A program made the translations under genes and the position numbers. From Escherichia phage vB_EcoP_Bp7: 52,615 bases of DNA. The notes beneath the pieces were generated by a model. That model made no database searches. It worked only from the letters and a program-made list of their open reading frames with translations, and had not been told where the DNA came from. Shown here one piece after another: positions 1 through 52,615 of this stretch. Position 1 is the stretch's first letter. Each line of letters begins with the position of its first letter. The DNA is taken from sequence record NC_079181.1; one strand, 5' to 3'.

Positions 1-1941
1 ATGACTACTATCACCACTCAAACTATCAAATCCGTTGTTCCTGCTATCACTGCTCTGGTATATCGTGCCAAAGAGAAACAGAACTATATGCAGCCTCAGA
101 CTTGTGCTATTGCTGCCTTAGCCATCTTCAAGATGATGACGTCTTTCACTCGTGATGACGTTGTTCCTGCCATCGCGATGGTTGAGCTGGCTTCTGCTTC
201 TATTGCTGATGCCAACCGTTATAACAACGATTTGAAAGCAATGCACTATGTTGACCCAGCTATCAACCTGATTGGTTTGGCTAAGCACTTTGGCTTCATC
301 ACCATGAACGAAGACAAGTCATTCCAACAAACTGATACATGGGTTGAACTGGTTACAACCAAAGACACAGCAGTGCCATTCACTGAGCGTGTTACATCTG
401 AATCTCGTCGCAAGCCTTTCGTTAAAGGTGGCAAAGTTAAGCCATCCAAAACTCTGAAAGCTGCAATCGAATTCCTGCAAGATACTGAGTACCATGTGGA
501 GACTGAGATGGTTCGCATCATCCAGTCCATGCTTGAACAACGTACCTACGGTGGTTTGCAGATGCCAGAAGCAATCCAGACTGAACTCCATGTTTGGAAC
601 AATGCTGTAGCAATGATGAATCAGGACACACTGTATTCTGATTACTTTGCTGATAACCGTGGTCGTCTGTATCACGTAGCATGTGCTGGTCCTAACCCAC
701 AATCATCTGACTTTGCTCGTTGCTTGTATTCTCACAATGTTGAGAACATCGTTAAGAAGTTTAACGAAGATGGTTCTACTACCATTGCATACAACATGTT
801 CATGGCAGAGCTGGAAGATATTTCTGGTGGTGAATGGTGCAGTGCTAAGCGTTTAACTTATGTTGCTCAGAATCCAGCTGGTTCACTTGCTCGCATGATG
901 AACATGCCTAAAGCTGAACGTCCTTCTAAGCCATTCACTTATGTTCGTCTGGCTCTGGATTGGTTCAAGTTTGAGACTACAGGTGAGTGCGATTCTCGTG
1001 TAGGCTTTGGCTTAGATGCTAAATGTTCTGGTACTCAATATCTGGCATTCATTGCTGGTAACATGGAAATGGCTCGTGCAACAGGTCTGGTTGATTCTGA
1101 GACTAAAGCATCTGACCCATACCAGTTGAGTCTTCGTGAACTGTTGAAGCTGCTGGACAAGTCTTCAATGAAGCCATCTCCTGAAATCATGGATGAATTC
1201 TTGAATCCGAAAGCTGGTCGTAAGTTTATCAAAACTCCGTACATGGCTATCCAATACGGTGGTGGTAAAGCTGCACTAACTGGTTCATCTGACTTCATCA
1301 GCTACATGACAGAAGCACTCCAGATTCCTATGGAGAAAGCAGAAGCATTTGCTGAACTGTGTGTGGAAGCAATCCATAACGCATTGGGTGCTAAGATTAA
1401 CATGTTCATTGAGAAAGCTGCTGAAGCTGCATACAACCGTTGTGTTGAACTTGGTAAAGAGTACATCACATATCGTCACACTGATGGTCAGGTTGTAATG
1501 AAGCCTTGCTTCCCATCTCGTGAAATCTGTGAGGCATTCAGCATTCGTGTTGATAGTCAAACTCGTGTTATCTTTGGTCAGATTCAGGAGAATAAGCCTT
1601 GGACCATTCGTGAATCCAATCCAACTAAAGAAGAATTCAAGCGTACTTTCGTTGTTAACTACATTCAGGGCATTGATGCACTTGTTGCTCGTACTGTTGC
1701 AGTTAAAGCTAAAGAAGCTGGTCTTCGTGGCTTCACTTCAATCCATGATTGTTTCCGTTGCTGTTTGGCAGACGCTCCACGTATGATGGAAGTTATTCGT
1801 GCAGCATATGTTGAAATCTTCGTAACCAACAATCAGTTCGAGAATCTGTCTAAGCAACTCGGTGGCATTCAGATGTATCATGAGAACATCGTAACTGAAG
1901 AGCTTCTGATGAGCGAACACGCTTACTACTTCTGTCAATAA
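1..1941 (+). CDS. T7-like single-subunit DNA-dependent RNA polymerase, compact (646 aa)
   Basis: Palm motifs in translation: motif A GFGLDAKCSGTQYLAF, motif B RKFIKTPYMAIQYGGGK, motif C SIHDCF. ATG at base 1; a GGAG lies 8 nt upstream across the window junction (52604-52607) if the sequence is circularly contiguous. Confidence 0.9.
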   Translation: MTTITTQTIKSVVPAITALVYRAKEKQNYMQPQTCAIAALAIFKMMTSFTRDDVVPAIAMVELASASIADANRYNNDLKAMHYVDPAINLIGLAKHFGFITMNEDKSFQQTDTWVELVTTKDTAVPFTERVTSESRRKPFVKGGKVKPSKTLKAAIEFLQDTEYHVETEMVRIIQSMLEQRTYGGLQMPEAIQTELHVWNNAVAMMNQDTLYSDYFADNRGRLYHVACAGPNPQSSDFARCLYSHNVENIVKKFNEDGSTTIAYNMFMAELEDISGGEWCSAKRLTYVAQNPAGSLARMMNMPKAERPSKPFTYVRLALDWFKFETTGECDSRVGFGLDAKCSGTQYLAFIAGNMEMARATGLVDSETKASDPYQLSLRELLKLLDKSSMKPSPEIMDEFLNPKAGRKFIKTPYMAIQYGGGKAALTGSSDFISYMTEALQIPMEKAEAFAELCVEAIHNALGAKINMFIEKAAEAAYNRCVELGKEYITYRHTDGQVVMKPCFPSREICEAFSIRVDSQTRVIFGQIQENKPWTIRESNPTKEEFKRTFVVNYIQGIDALVARTVAVKAKEAGLRGFTSIHDCFRCCLADAPRMMEVIRAAYVEIFVTNNQFENLSKQLGGIQMYHENIVTEELLMSEHAYYFCQ

Positions 1942-2266: not shown

Positions 2267-2285
2267 ACATTAGTTGGATGTGAAG
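2267..2285 (+). promoter_or_regulatory. phage promoter-like motif P1 (acattagttggatgtgaag)
   Basis: Member of a conserved motif family seen at 10 sites; no sigma70 -10/-35 pattern. Confidence 0.55.
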
Positions 2286-2299
2286 TAAAAGAATACGGA

Positions 2300-3135
2300 G
2301 AAATATTCCGCATGTCATGTTGAATCATTCTAGAAACATTCAGCATGTCAGCTTTGAGTTACAGTGTTGTAATGATGTGGCAATCATTGAACTCCCTAGG
2401 TAGGCCACCTACAGTTCCAGCAACCATGACTTAGAGTAGGAATATCTATCCGAAACTTGTACTTCACCTATAGCATGTTCAATTGCGACAATATTGCTCC
2501 ATCTCCTATTATAAAGGCCCACCCACAAGCCGGGAGATAACTTTGGTAATATTGGAACTTTTGGACATGCTTCTTTCTTTCTACAAGAATTCGAAAGAAG
2601 AGAAGAAGTCGGACAAAGCATCTCGTTTGCACGCAGAAGCCGCCCCGATTTTGAGCAACAAATATTGTGACAATTGCGTCGCAGTATGGCATGTAAATAT
2701 TGCTACAAATTGGCATGTTGGAATGTGGCAGAATTGTTAGAGGACTAATCACCTCGAAGATACAATCGTCTACCAATCTGGCATGTTAATTTTGTAACAG
2801 TATTTGTGCCAATTTCGCATGTAGTATTTAACCCAATATTCTTGCAACCCGCATGAATACTGGCTTCCAGCCAAGCGAAGGCTTTATCATCGCATGTAAT
2901 ATTGTGACAATATTGGGATAAAACCCTTTATTTAAATCATTTAGTTTATTAATTAAATGGTCGGTTTTCTGTACATAGGTATTCAGCTGTTTGTGCCAAA
3001 TACAAACAAGTTGGCTGCTTCTACAGAACTCCAGTGCTATAAATGTTCGTGCCAATCTGCTGCAATTTATCTCATTTGGCGGGGTAATATTGTATTAGAT
3101 TGGCATGTCATTCTTTCGATTAGTTGCATGTGAAT
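2300..3135. repeat. non-coding array of degenerate repeats (core GCATGT about 12 times, palindrome CAATATTG about 5 times) with an AT-rich stretch
   Basis: Read directly, e.g. tggcatgtaaat, tggcatgttgg, tggcatgttaat, tcgcatgtagta, tcgcatgtaat, tggcatgtcatt, ttgcatgtgaat; AT-rich 2925-2990; no credible ORF. Confidence 0.6.
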
Positions 3136-3316
3136 AAGACCAAATCTCTGTAAATTCTGTGACAGATTTTAGAGAGATTATGTCTCCAAGCTAATCATTG
3201 CAGTTCTTCGGCACTTGCTGTGTCACATACTCCCTACAACTTTAAGGTGGATTGAGGTAAGACAAGACCTCCACAATCGTTCTGTAGGGAGTTTTCTTTT
3301 AACTTAGGAGAATAAA

Positions 3317-50295: not shown

Positions 50296-50850
50296 ATGCT
50301 ATCATTCAAAGTCCTTGCAGTTCTGGCAGCTTTAGTTCACATCAACGCCCCAGCTTCGGTTGGGGCAGTGAATTCTGCTATTACAGATTTTGCAAGTCAT
50401 TCCTATTTAAATGGAAGTCTGAAACTATCTTCTTCACAACGCAAAGAGCTAGAATGCTATACTAAAGTTATTTGGTATGAAGCTCGCGGAGAAGACAAAC
50501 ATGGAAAGATTCTGGTAGCTAATGTCGTCCGTAATAGAACCAAGTTCGGGAAGCCATTCGCTAACACCGTTTGTGATGTTGTCTATCAACGCAATCAATT
50601 TGCATGGACACGAGAAGCAAAGAAGAAGAATGCTCAATGGAAGCATGTAGCAAAGATTAATTATGCCACGGAACAACAACAAGTTCTGGACACCATTAAT
50701 GTTGCAATCTCTTTTGTATTATTTAATCAACCCTCTGTCACCAAAGCAACCCACTTTTGTACAGCATCGGAGAAGTGCAACTTCAAGAATGTCAAAGGTT
50801 TGGGACGTTACGGTGGCCACAAATTCTATGAGTATCTAGGAAATCTGTAA
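50296..50850 (+). CDS. endolysin, SleB-like cell wall hydrolase with N-terminal signal/SAR-like segment
   Basis: Hydrolase_2/SleB signature [22 protein letters not shown] ... VVYQRNQF; N-terminal hydrophobic [19 protein letters not shown]. Confidence 0.7.
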
Positions 50851-51950
50851 TGGCTTACACTACCTTTTCACAAACCAAGAATAACCAACTACTAGAGCCA
50901 ATGTTCTTTGGTCAGAACGTTAACGTTGCTCGATATGACCAACAGAAGTATAGCATCTTCGAGAAGTTAATCGAAAAGCAGTTATCTTTCTTTTGGCGAC
51001 CTGAAGAGGTTGATGTTAGTCAAGACCGAATTGACTATGCTGGTCTTCCTGAATGCGAGAAGCACATCTTCACCAGCAATTTACGATACCAAATCCTGCT
51101 TGATTCCATTCAGGGACGTGGACCAACCACAGTTTTGCTACCAATTGTGAGCATTCCTGAGCTGGAAACCTGGATTGAAACTTGGTCATTCTCAGAGACA
51201 ATTCACTCCCGTTCTTACACGCATATTATTCGTAATATTGTCACAGACCCAAGTGTAATTTTCGACGAAATTGTGGAGAATGAGCACATTAAAATGCGTG
51301 CAATTGGCATCTCCCAATATTATGACGAGCTTCAACATCTAACTTCCATGTGGCATCTGCATGAAGATGAAGTAGACCTTCGTGAGCTTAAGAAGAAGCT
51401 GTATTTATGCCTCATGTCCATTAATGCACTAGAAGCAATCCGCTTTTATGTCAGTTTTGCTTGCTCATTTGCCTTCGCTGAACGCAAGTTGATGGAAGGG
51501 AATGCCAAGATTATTCGCTTAATTGCTCGTGATGAAGCACTCCATTTGACCGGAACTCAACACATGCTGAACCTTCTTGCAAGCGGTGTTGATGACCCAG
51601 AAATGGCAGAAATTGCTAAAGAATGCCGTCAAGAATGCCAACTAATGTTCGAAAATGTAGCCCAACAAGAGAAAGATTGGGCTGATTATTTGTTCAAAGA
51701 TGGCTCAATGATTGGCCTAAACAAGCAAATTCTGTGCGGATATGTGGAATATATCACGAATATTCGTATGCAAGCAGTTGGATTAGATGCTCCATTCAAA
51801 GGTGCTACTAACCCGATTCCTTGGATTAACGCATGGCTGAATTCGGATGCTGTACAGGTTGCTCCACAAGAAACGGAAATTAGTTCGTACCTTGTCGGGC
51901 AGATTGATTCCGAAGTGGACACCAATGCTCTGGGCGGATTTGAGCTGTAA
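50850..51950 (+). CDS. nrdB: class Ia ribonucleotide reductase beta subunit, host-like
   Basis: Near-identical over most of its length to remembered E. coli NrdB ([11 protein letters not shown]..., [40 protein letters not shown]-terminal [14 protein letters not shown]). Confidence 0.92.
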
Positions 51951-52092
51951 CGATTATATGTGAGAAGAGATTCGATGCGTTAGCGTCGTTTCTCTTTGAG
52001 CTAGAATAAGACAAGTAAATTAAATATTTATTTATTCCCAATATTGCTACAATATTAAGAGTAGTATTAGGAATGCGTAAAGTTAAATGGTA

Positions 52093-52149
52093 CATGGTCG
52101 GTCAACTGTATCTGGATAGTAATTCGTTCATGGTCGGTCAGCTGTATCT
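52093..52149. repeat. two 21-bp direct repeats (catggtcggtcaRctgtatct)
   Basis: Copies at 52093-52113 and 52129-52149. Confidence 0.7.
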
Positions 52150-52208
52150 CCTTCGGAGAAGTTATCTCGCCGAAATTTGTTCGAATGGAAAACCGACTAT
52201 TAAATAAA

Positions 52209-52233
52209 TTTTTTTTTTTTTTTTTTTTTTTTT
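52209..52233. repeat. 25-nt poly(T) homopolymer
   Basis: Uninterrupted T run preceded by TAAATAAA. Confidence 0.9.
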
Positions 52234-52330
52234 CAATATTGCTACAGAATTAATGAGACTCAAATTGTTTCAATATTATCGAGACTCGAATTGTTACGAT
52301 ATTAATGAGACTAGAATTGTGGCAATTGCT
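52234..52330. repeat. three tandem degenerate ~30-bp repeats (core atattaNNgagactNNaattgt)
   Basis: attaatgagactcaaattgtt / attatcgagactcgaattgtt / attaatgagactagaattgtg. Confidence 0.65.
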
Positions 52331-52531
52331 CACTTCGCTCGCTTTATATTATAATTTTATTTTTGGGCCAGCGGGGAGGGGAAGCCCAACGTCCTATCGG
52401 ACTTAAAATACGGTCCCTACTCCAACTTTTTCCTACAGCCTATCGGCTTTCAAACAACACCAAGTTAGGCGCTTCGCTTATGGGTCAAGGTCAAAGTCTC
52501 CGTGCTGTTGTAACAATGGCACAGGTTTGTG

Positions 52532-52550
52532 ATATTAGTTGGACGTGAAT
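52532..52550 (+). promoter_or_regulatory. phage promoter-like motif P8 (atattagttggacgtgaat), upstream of the RNAP gene if circular
   Basis: Conserved motif about 65 bp before the window end; RNAP ATG is at base 1. Confidence 0.5.
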
Positions 52551-52615
52551 TGTGTAATGGCTACGCTATTATAATCCGTTTCAGTTAAATCATACACAAT
52601 CTTGGAGACTTACAA

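Follow-up and report, generated by a model that had tools for sequence, protein, structure and literature searches.

The sequence record of Escherichia phage Bp7 closes with 665 bp of repeat-rich DNA (positions 51951 to 52615 of the window, that is, of the 52,615 nucleotides analysed here), and this stretch raises the question of whether the phage genome physically ends there and what its repeats are for. The original prediction saw it as a terminal, non-coding region with the repeat arrays of a T7-like phage. The best explanation of the locus, and in our judgement a reasonably probable one, is that it is a control region between nrdB and the RNA polymerase (RNAP) gene, with a host promoter in the tandem array and a terminase cut at the hairpin GTCC-TATC-GGAC.

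The spacer between nrdB and the RNA polymerase gene

Judged by its sequence, the Bp7 record is the whole genome of a Chaseviridae phage of E. coli (Carltongylesvirus-like, phiEcoM-GJ1-like), and positions 51951 to 52615 are an ordinary non-coding intergenic control region. nrdB ends at 51950 and base 1 of the record is the start of the ATG of the single-subunit RNAP gene; relatives are arranged alike, with the spacer annotated between nrdB and RNAP or, in 4HA13, Y2, PM1 and Myduc, with endolysin instead of nrdB. Since the record starts with the first codon of the RNAP gene, "terminal" describes the region by record convention only: the 3' end of the record carries the Shine-Dalgarno sequence and promoters of the RNAP gene, and it is not a physical end. 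Nor does the T7-like label apply, Bp7 being a Chaseviridae myovirus with an RNAP-containing terminal repeat (DTR) of 2.3 to 3.2 kb and not a T7-like podovirus. All Bp7 genes lie on one strand.

The 665 bp match 68 phage records, all of them Chaseviridae except one labelled Staphylococcus; 35 cover at least 80% of the region, and identity to the same spacer in these records is 72 to 88%. That the region is non-coding was predicted correctly, the sole recurrent small open reading frame (ORF; 52073-52207) lying in two different frames among relatives. We rejected a small protein gene across the 21-bp repeats (an ORF beginning MRKV), which relatives read in two different frames and of which JL1 has a truncated form, as well as an ORF across the conserved block described below (52363-52548, TTG start), inside which a 1-nt indel separates close relatives. 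From left to right, the spacer and its flanking genes comprise the following features.

50850-51950, plus strand: nrdB, which closes the rightward gene array and encodes the small subunit of ribonucleotide reductase, from the ORF list; the homologous CDS is nrdB in flopper, JL1, PYps23T and Mangalitsa
51973-51998, plus strand: terminator-like hairpin, CGATGCGTTAGCGTCG then TTTCTCTTTG, just 3' of nrdB, from a terminator scan; same element in GJ1
52039-52056, no strand: double box CAATATTGCTACAATATT with CAATATT twice at an 11-bp distance (CAATATT-N4-CAATATT), conserved in Y2, PM1, 4HA13 and mg34
52093-52113, no strand: direct repeat copy 1, CATGGTCGGTCAACTGTATCT, with a conserved GGTCGGTCARCTGT box that is kept in Y2, PM1, 4HA13, Myduc and mg34
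52129-52149, no strand: direct repeat copy 2, CATGGTCGGTCAGCTGTATCT, from a repeat search
52209-52233, no strand: unbroken T25, where the GC content of the region is lowest (20% at 52200-52299)
52238-52320, plus strand: 26-bp units in tandem with the consensus ATTGTTACAATATTAATGAGACTCGA, counted by TRF as 3.2 copies; 2 to 3 copies in relatives
52326-52355, plus strand: host sigma70-like promoter TTGCTC-18 nt-TATAAT, positional equivalent of the host promoter annotated in GJ1 (TTGACG-18-TATTAT)
52534-52549, plus strand: phage-promoter-like motif ATTAGTTGGACGTGAA (P8 of the original prediction), upstream of RNAP; annotated "putative phage promoter" in GJ1
52570-52575, plus strand: TATAAT hexamer without a good -35 (TTGTGT, spaced by 14 nt); 4HA13, Y2 and PM1 do not keep it as a -10
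52604-52607, plus strand: Shine-Dalgarno GGAG of the RNAP gene; same Shine-Dalgarno in the ST32 ORF table
1-1941, plus strand: single-subunit RNAP gene, inside the predicted DTR, from the ORF list; annotated RNAP in relatives

The terminator-like hairpin is invariant across 16 aligned Carltongylesvirus-like and Yersinia relatives and has diverged in 4HA13. Both 21-bp direct repeats are present as predicted, with 1 mismatch in 21, and can be extended to 30 nt at 87% identity; BSBP01, TH24 and TH37 have a single copy. A variant of the CAATATT double box returns at 52234-52253.

The only unusual part of the spacer is the unbroken run of 25 T residues, which the original prediction had placed correctly. 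It sits where most relatives have a bipartite T-rich tract, typically T7-12 ATAA T8-11, and its length compares with T-runs of 7 to 16 nt in 24 relatives; Bp7 alone among the compared sequences lacks the internal ATAA. On the preferred explanation, this bipartite tract has been fused or expanded into T25 in a single lineage. When the 26-bp unit pattern was used to scan metagenomes for more T-tract variants, there was no match.

The tandem repeats that follow had been described as three units of about 30 bp; the array is real, but its period is 26 bp (3.2 copies, TRF score 103, 78% matches). Outside the array the genome contains no further full unit, 0 chance matches being expected, and the record of phage flopper already annotates the repeats as repeat_region. 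Each unit carries a -35-like TTAATG or TTATCG that is followed, 18 nt on, by a -10-like TATTAT or TATTAA in the next unit. In Bp7, a 21-bp insertion in the last unit creates the predicted sigma70-like element, with TTGCTC at 52326-52331, an 18-nt spacer and TATAAT at 52350-52355. This putative promoter agrees with the consensus at 9 of 12 positions (3/6 in the -35 and 6/6 in the -10), and the consensus scan does not list it because only 3/6 positions match in the -35 hexamer. phiEcoM-GJ1 has a host sigma70 promoter annotated in its last unit, which our scan reads as TTGACG-18-TATTAT (10/12), and the -10 element of the last-unit promoter is conserved across genera.

Further downstream, the predicted promoter P8 proved to be a perfect copy (0 mismatches) of the family's phage-promoter-like motif ATTAGTTGGANGTGAA. 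With up to 3 mismatches allowed, the motif matches the genome 13 times, always on the plus strand, against 1.8 expected. It is a putative promoter; according to ICTV, the promoters of these phages are not yet identified. The tandem units were also considered as extra phage-RNAP promoters, and this was not supported, as just 10 of 16 motif positions match and the conserved GTTGG core is absent.

The conserved block and the predicted genome ends

About 80 bp downstream of the tandem array lies a block of ~100 bp that is conserved across genera. This block and the two predicted boundaries of the DTR are the remaining features of the locus (a caret marks the cut, here and below).

52366-52463, no strand: conserved ~100-bp block GGGCC...GAGGGGAAGCCCAAC-GTCCTATCGGAC-TTAAAATACGGTCCCT...CTTTTTC...AGCCTATCGGCT, 77 to 80% identical in Erwinia and Aeromonas phages
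52398-52403, no strand: predicted left physical end, or left DTR boundary, 52397^52398 to 52402^52403, by homology to the ends of six relatives
2570-2614, no strand: predicted right DTR boundary, a 12-13 bp inverted repeat CTTCTTTCTTTC / GAAAGAAGAGAAG and then AAGTC^GGAC, from the right ends of relatives

The Bp7 block follows the pattern CCTATCGG(A/G)...AATACGGTCCCT...CTTTTTC...CCTATCGG, with both CCTATCGG copies present as hairpins or palindromes at 52391-52402 and 52437-52448. In an alignment with 17 relatives, AATACGGTCCCT and CCTATCGG are invariant, and identity over the block reaches 99.5%. Where the hairpin arms do change, in PM1, Faunus and Myduc, they change on both sides and stay complementary, GTCC/GGAC becoming CTCCC/GGGAG or ATCCC/GGGAT. 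We considered the block as an RNA gene and rejected this: Rfam covariance models found nothing better than E = 1.7 in the region, a tRNA scan of the region found none, RNA and DNA folding of the block was no better than for shuffled sequence (z about +0.6), and RNAalifold returned two 4-bp hairpins only, with negligible covariation (term -0.17). We retain it as a palindrome in the DNA or a cut site. A metagenome scan with the terminus-block pattern yielded ~6 true homologues among 30 mostly spurious matches.

The case for a genome end in this block comes from the left DTR ends, recorded or predicted by PhageTerm, of six relatives from five genera (Y2, PM1, JL1, Mangalitsa, 4HA13 and Myduc), which all fall within 5 nt of one another at the hairpin GTCC-TATC-GGAC. 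The left end is tat^CGGAC in JL1 (DTR 2,995 bp), ccctat^CGGGAG in Myduc (PhageTerm; DTR 3,202 bp), tgtcg^GAC in Y2 (DTR 2,608 bp), tatcg^GGAG in PM1 (DTR 2,665 bp) and cggac^TTAAA in both Mangalitsa and 4HA13 (PhageTerm). By this homology, a physical end of the Bp7 genome very probably lies inside 51951-52615. The right ends of relatives (gtc^GGACAA in JL1, gac^GGACAA in Myduc and gtc^GAACAA in PM1, with Mangalitsa also compared) place the predicted right boundary of Bp7 at about 2610^2611, which would give a DTR of ~2,828 bp that includes the RNAP gene; long terminal repeats of ~3 kb are described for the Chaseviridae (ICTV).

The claim that the arrays lie near a physical genome end is thus half right: the ends of six relatives map to one site in the region, but the end of the record is not that end and the arrays are not part of the terminal repeat. 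The T-tract and tandem array lie ~80 to 195 bp upstream of the predicted DTR, and so they would be ~2.9 to 3 kb from the right end in virion DNA. The putative promoter in the last unit is likewise outside the predicted DTR, and virion DNA would therefore carry a left-end RNAP gene without it.

Read from left to right, the region would begin with the terminator of the late gene array, followed by the boxes conserved in the family (CAATATT-N4-CAATATT and two copies of GGTCGGTCARCTGT) and by the very AT-rich T-tract, which probably is no switch but an AT-rich element upstream that bends or melts easily. Next would come the promoter-like 26-bp units, the last of which, with its 21-bp insertion, would be a host sigma70 promoter aimed at the RNAP gene; host RNAP may use it to express the right-end or a recombined copy of this gene. 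Terminase would then cut concatemers at the GTCC-TATC-GGAC hairpin, presumably at the same site in Bp7 as in its relatives, generating the left end of a ~2.8 kb DTR (~52398 through 2610), and the putative phage-RNAP promoter and the RNAP ribosome-binding site would complete the region.

Other readings of the repeats and ends

The strongest competitor, which we consider possible but tentative, makes the 26-bp units, the boxes and a bent or rigid T-tract a recognition site for the small terminase or another packaging protein, with the promoter role secondary. Such a site would position the nuclease on the hairpin ~80 bp downstream, as lambda cosB or SPP1 pacL do, and in every relative examined the arrays lie 80 to 195 bp from the homologous cut site. 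The repeat cores are lineage specific (GAGACT in coliphages, CGGCTC in PM1, GTCGTAAG in Myduc and GATTCG in Y2) within a conserved architecture, as expected of sites that coevolve with a phage protein, and this pattern suits binding by a phage-encoded protein no less than by host RNAP. The surroundings of the predicted right DTR boundary (2489-2909) again contain CAATATT-like boxes and a GGTCGGT...CTGTA-like box, 14 of the 36 AATATT hexamers of the genome falling within 4.3% of its length. However, Faunus and L060 have T-tract and units in another order (T-run downstream, sometimes with a small ORF between), which is unexpected for a fixed geometry, and right-end packaging as in T7 would put the putative recognition site near 2610. 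Like the R-sites of lambda cosB and like SPP1 pacL, Bp7 has iterated 20-30 bp sites and an A/T-tract less than ~200 bp from the cleavage site, but this likeness is one of architecture only, and the Bp7 sites lie upstream of the left end, not in the DNA packaged from that cut, with no IHF site.

A more general proposal, to which we attach similarly limited confidence, is that both DTR edges across Chaseviridae genera may be cut at a (T/A)C^GGAC-like sequence in or after a hairpin, with the upstream units and A/T-tract as a coevolving recognition array. The cut grammar that would form part of it, held just as tentatively, consists of the left hairpin GTCC-TATC-GGAC and, on the right, of the 12-13 bp stem CTTCTTTCTTTC/GAAAGAAGAGAAG followed by GTC^GGAC.

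Other accounts of genome ends exist in the family: phiEcoM-GJ1 was first described as circularly permuted, and PhageTerm classes Fifi44 as "headful". The ends of PYps23T were located with restriction digests, PCR on the ligated ends and primer walking or direct sequencing; its DTR is 2,339 bp, with ATTAGTTGGA^ at both boundaries, 141 bp further downstream than the hairpin site. By analogy, Bp7 would have its left end within the phage-promoter-like motif (ATTAGTTGGA^CGTGAA, 52543^52544) and its right end at 2278^2279, for a DTR of 2,350 bp. We find this unlikely, even with the direct experimental mapping in PYps23T, the placement of both of its boundaries at the same base of the motif and the fact that the only two zero-mismatch copies of the motif in Bp7 stand exactly at the homologous places. 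Six other relatives from five genera, studied by several groups and methods, end 141 to 146 bp upstream, and a junction within a shared 10-nt repeat would also be expected from PCR template switching or from recombination between motif copies.

We likewise doubt that the region is a replication origin, with the T-tract as unwinding element and the 26-bp repeats as iterons, or with a T7-style promoter beside an AT-rich origin. T7 origins do combine phage promoters with AT-rich DNA, and, as in iteron-type origins, an AT-rich tract here directly adjoins three phased direct repeats (3.2 x 26 bp right after the 20%-GC stretch at 52200-52299). The cumulative GC skew also has its minimum around the record junction and the first 3 kb, but this can be explained by transcription alone because all genes are on one strand. 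Unlike at iteron-type origins, searches of 51951-52615 for DnaA boxes (up to 1 mismatch) and for the IHF consensus found none, no initiator gene lies alongside (the flanks are nrdB and RNAP), the unit copy number falls to 2 in many relatives, and the 26-bp unit can be read as a promoter too.

Finally, it is highly improbable that T25 is a phase-variable (contingency) switch or that its stated length is a sequencing or assembly artefact: the length differences among relatives and the loss of the internal ATAA in Bp7 alone speak for such a reading, but the tract lies outside any conserved ORF (those crossing it are spurious, at 22 to 33 aa only, and the recurrent small ORF stops before it), is not placed between a -35 and a -10, whose spacer 25 nt would exceed in any case, and varies between species, which is not the same as variation within a population. 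Of the predicted slippage-prone, possibly phase-variable element, then, the length variation agrees with what slippage predicts, whereas phase variation is unsupported.

Bp7 among the Chaseviridae and other phages

The control region with its host promoter and hairpin cut site, as we prefer to read it, has close counterparts. Other Chaseviridae (phiEcoM-GJ1, ST32, JL1, Mangalitsa, 4HA13, Y2, PM1 and Myduc) have the homologous spacer with the same order of elements, and the host promoter annotated in phiEcoM-GJ1 is at the same position as the putative one of Bp7. Compared with these phages, whose DTR boundaries are annotated or deducible while those of Bp7 are predicted by homology, Bp7 has T25 in place of T7-12 ATAA T8-11, and three units plus 21 inserted bp in place of the usual -35.

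T7 (Dunn & Studier 1983) has a 160-bp terminal repeat with arrays of short repeats alongside and, before gene 1, the early host promoters A1-A3. Bp7 shares with it the short repeat arrays beside a (predicted) terminal-repeat boundary, putative host-type promoter(s) before a single-subunit RNAP gene and genes on one strand. Yet it differs from T7 in being a myovirus, in a DTR of ~2.3 to 3.2 kb (the family range) that includes the RNAP gene, and in the position of arrays and host promoter outside the terminal repeat. The comparison with T7 covers architecture.

The biology of the region is ordinary and largely known: its repeats belong to a family-wide control and packaging-adjacent region and are not something new. 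The value of the analysis lies mostly in annotation, as the Bp7 record was opened at an arbitrary point and the true ends are predicted at ~52398 and ~2610. If the cut grammar holds across the genera, it would supply specific, testable rules of cleavage for a type of long-DTR packaging that is not known to have been dissected. The termini of six phages, from several groups, converge on one hairpin and those of PYps23T do not, which offers a concrete target for studies of long-DTR genome ends.

The spacer between nrdB and the RNA polymerase gene

The 665-bp interval at 51951-52615 is the ordinary control region of a known phage family, some of it annotated previously, and it holds a predicted boundary of the long direct terminal repeat (DTR). 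Essentially all long open reading frames (ORFs) of the 52,615-bp window lie on the + strand, and the interval is framed by the following features.

Features framing the interval
1-1941, + strand: 646-aa ORF, the RNA polymerase (RNAP) gene; its ATG is exactly window base 1
50850-51950, + strand: 366-aa ORF, nrdB; the window ends 665 bp beyond it
51973-51988: terminator-like hairpin directly after nrdB
52604-52607, + strand: Shine-Dalgarno GGAG of the RNAP gene, at the window 3' end; cognate ATG at base 1

Because this ribosome-binding site is completed only by the ATG at base 1, and because nrdB and a single-subunit RNAP gene flank the homologous region in annotated relatives, the interval is an internal intergenic region; the choice of the RNAP gene as the record's start is conventional, and the record's end is no physical terminus. 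The original prediction of a nearby genome end was right in spirit, since the left ends of relatives map inside the interval, but not for the window end itself.

The interval matches 68 phage records, 35 of which span ≥80% of it; they belong to the Chaseviridae, mostly Carltongylesvirus (e.g., phiEcoM-GJ1, hereafter GJ1, and ST32), with one labelled Staphylococcus phage Pel53. No record identical to the window was found in the phage collection, the best match reaching 88% over the interval and ∼97% over the RNAP gene. The Pel53 record (PP952070.1; host S. hyicus) is 82% identical over the interval and ∼90% over the coliphage RNAP gene, and its host label looks doubtful. Prior annotations comprise a repeat_region in flopper, a promoter in GJ1, and terminal repeats in Mangalitsa, 4HA13, and Myduc. 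In some relatives (Bp10, JL1, TH37, and Mangalitsa, compared with window positions 1-60), the annotated RNAP gene is 2,115 bp long (704 aa) and begins differently (ATGACTAATGAAGAATATCG...). Other sequence also separates the promoter-like motif from the start codon there, a pattern suggestive of mosaic replacement of the RNAP gene's 5' end.

The only recurrent small ORF (52073-52207) starts with MRKV at a conserved ATG. A 1-nt indel places it in one frame in nine phages including the window (MRKVK(TK)WYMVGQLYL...) and in another in seven (MRKVQNQMVHGRSTV...), and it is truncated in JL1; it is thus probably not a gene, and what is conserved is DNA rather than protein. In the frame used by the window, MVGQLYL is encoded twice, by two 21-nt direct repeats (52093-52113 and 52129-52149, one base different). 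Neither a tRNA nor an Rfam match was found in the interval, which folds no better than shuffled sequence and has negligible covariation overall.

Shared architecture and a candidate host promoter

The interval was aligned with 16 relatives, to which Y2, PM1, Faunus, Myduc, and metagenomic contigs were then added. The architecture is common to the genera compared, with individual elements missing from some.

Elements shared across the spacer
Double CAATATT box
One or two GGTCGGTCARCTGT boxes
T-rich tract, usually with TATAAT just before it
Two or three tandem units starting ATTAA-
-10-like TATAAT/TATTAT, then TTTTATTTTT
Strongly conserved block (∼100 bp, 52366-52463)

Every element originally listed is present. 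The tandem array is real, with a period of 26 bp rather than ∼30 (3.2 copies, 52238-52320, TRF score 103); relatives carry 2-3 copies, and the window genome has no copy of the unit outside the array. The unit core varies by lineage (GAGACT..AATTGT in coliphages and Faunus, CGGCTC in PM1, GTCGTAAG in Myduc, GATTCG in Y2), and the order of T-tract and units differs in Faunus and in a further sequence, L060. The uninterrupted T25 at 52209-52233 was confirmed and is, as called in the record, the only feature peculiar to the window genome: the longest T-run is 7-16 nt in 24 relatives, whose tract is typically T7-12 ATAA T8-11, and the internal ATAA is absent from the window. T25 would therefore have arisen in this lineage through fusion or expansion within a conserved tract of variable length, unless its length was miscalled; the suggested phase variation is without support.

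A sigma70-like TTGCTC (52326-52331)-18 nt-TATAAT (52350-52355) is present as predicted, with a weak -35 and a consensus scan score below threshold. The TTGCTC is supplied by a 21-bp insertion, TGCTCACTTCGCTCGCTTTAT (52327-52347), in the window's last unit. Bp10 and TH37 also carry it after the last unit, and variants lie between units 1 and 2 in GJ1 (L002:∼316-336) and before unit 1 in another sequence, L050, as if the segment were a spacer able to move within the array.

On the best-supported reading, the array ends in a host sigma70 promoter for the RNAP gene, a gene that host RNAP must transcribe first. GJ1 has an annotated host promoter (TTGACG-18-TATTAT, 10/12), the -10 element is conserved across genera, and each 26-bp unit, as read from the sequence, places a -35-like hexamer 18 nt ahead of the next unit's -10-like hexamer; the T-tract stretch (20% GC) would then supply AT-rich or bent DNA upstream of the promoter. 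The main rival, that the array is a site for a phage-encoded DNA-binding protein, e.g., a terminase recognition array, would fit about as well, given that unit cores are lineage specific and that CAATATT-type boxes recur near both DTR boundaries. The architecture alone would allow an origin of replication, but the region has no DnaA or IHF sites and no adjacent initiator gene, and GC skew is uninformative because all genes lie on one strand.

Genome ends in relatives and their predicted counterparts

Chaseviridae carry long DTRs, and boundaries were taken from comparing record ends and from annotated repeats.

DTR boundaries in six relatives (^, cut position)
JL1 (record has both copies): 2,995 bp; left ...cctat^CGGACTTAAAT; right ...gaagtc^GGACAAAG
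Myduc (PhageTerm): 3,202 bp; left ...ccctat^CGGGAG; right ...gtgac^GGACAA
Y2: 2,608 bp; left ...cctgtcg^GACTTAAT; right ...ggcatcc^GGGTTTCG
PM1: 2,665 bp; left ...cctatcg^GGAGATAAAT; right ...gagagtc^GAACAAC
Mangalitsa (PhageTerm): 3,234 bp; left ...ctatcggac^TTAAA; right ...gaagagaag^AGTCGGAG
4HA13 (PhageTerm): 3,120 bp; left ...ctatcggac^TTAAA; right ...ccggaca^TTGTTCC

All six left ends fall at most 5 nt apart inside the hairpin/palindrome GTCC-TATC-GGAC of the conserved block, whose identity is still 77-80% in phages of Erwinia and Aeromonas and which has a 1-nt indel between close relatives. In other genera the hairpin arms are altered on both sides yet complementary (CTCCC/GGGAG in PM1 and Myduc, ATCCC/GGGAT in Faunus), and a second hairpin with the same CCTATCGG core lies 46 bp downstream of the first. 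By homology, the window's left end is predicted at 52397^52398 to 52402^52403, ∼80 bp downstream of the array and ∼165 bp downstream of T25.

Conservation extends to the right boundary region: TATTATAAAGGCCCACCCACAAGCCGGGA is followed by a 12-13 bp inverted repeat and then by AAGTC^GGAC, the mapped site of the right ends in JL1, Mangalitsa, PM1, and Myduc. The window's right end is accordingly predicted at ∼2610^2611, which would make its DTR ∼2,828 bp long and place the RNAP gene inside it. The inverted repeat, CTTCTTTCTTTC / GAAAGAAGAGAAG (2570-2614; sites also in JL1, Mangalitsa, PYps23T, and GJ1), immediately precedes AAGTC^GGAC. A TC^GGAC-like core common to both boundaries is suggestive only. 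The putative host promoter would lie outside the DTR, so that the RNAP gene would be linked to it only at the right end, in a recombinant, or in a concatemer.

Of the genome's 18 GCATGT hexamers, 11 lie in the ∼1-kb noncoding stretch after the RNAP gene and a small ORF (2280-3140), often in the form GGCATGT then AATATTG, and so do 9 of the 36 AATATT hexamers; GCATGT is also the core of a phage-promoter-like variant, TTAGTTGCATGTGAA. Straddling the predicted right boundary, this stretch resembles a closely packed set of binding sites or promoter-like elements.

The phage-promoter-like motif

The promoter "P8" of the original prediction is a perfect ATTAGTTGGANGTGAA at 52534-52549. This motif, labelled "putative phage promoter" in GJ1's GenBank record, has 13 matches at ≤3 mismatches in the window genome, all on the + strand, against 1.8 expected. 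Eleven + strand copies of (a/c)ATTAGTTGGAnnTGAA (2269, 3119, 7104, 7493, 11413, 11554, 13188, 13520, 21488, 41026, and 52534) correspond to GJ1's nine putative phage promoters plus one directly upstream of the RNAP gene.

The ends of Yersinia phage PYps23T (L004/L006, MW147598), mapped by restriction digests, PCR over ligated ends, and primer walking, disagree with those of the six other family members: its 2,339-bp DTR begins and ends at the same base, ATTAGTTGGA^NGTGAA, in two motif copies, and the window's only two perfect copies (52534-52549 and 2269-2284) are at the homologous positions. Possibly this lineage is genuinely cut differently, the junction is an exchange between two 10-nt repeats as a PCR or recombination product, or it reflects a link between promoter and end formation. 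Both candidate left ends, hairpin and motif, fall inside the interval. Older or other reports describe family members as circularly permuted or headful packaged.

The motif copy directly upstream of the RNAP gene is conserved in all genera compared and, as a putative promoter, would let the polymerase transcribe its own gene.
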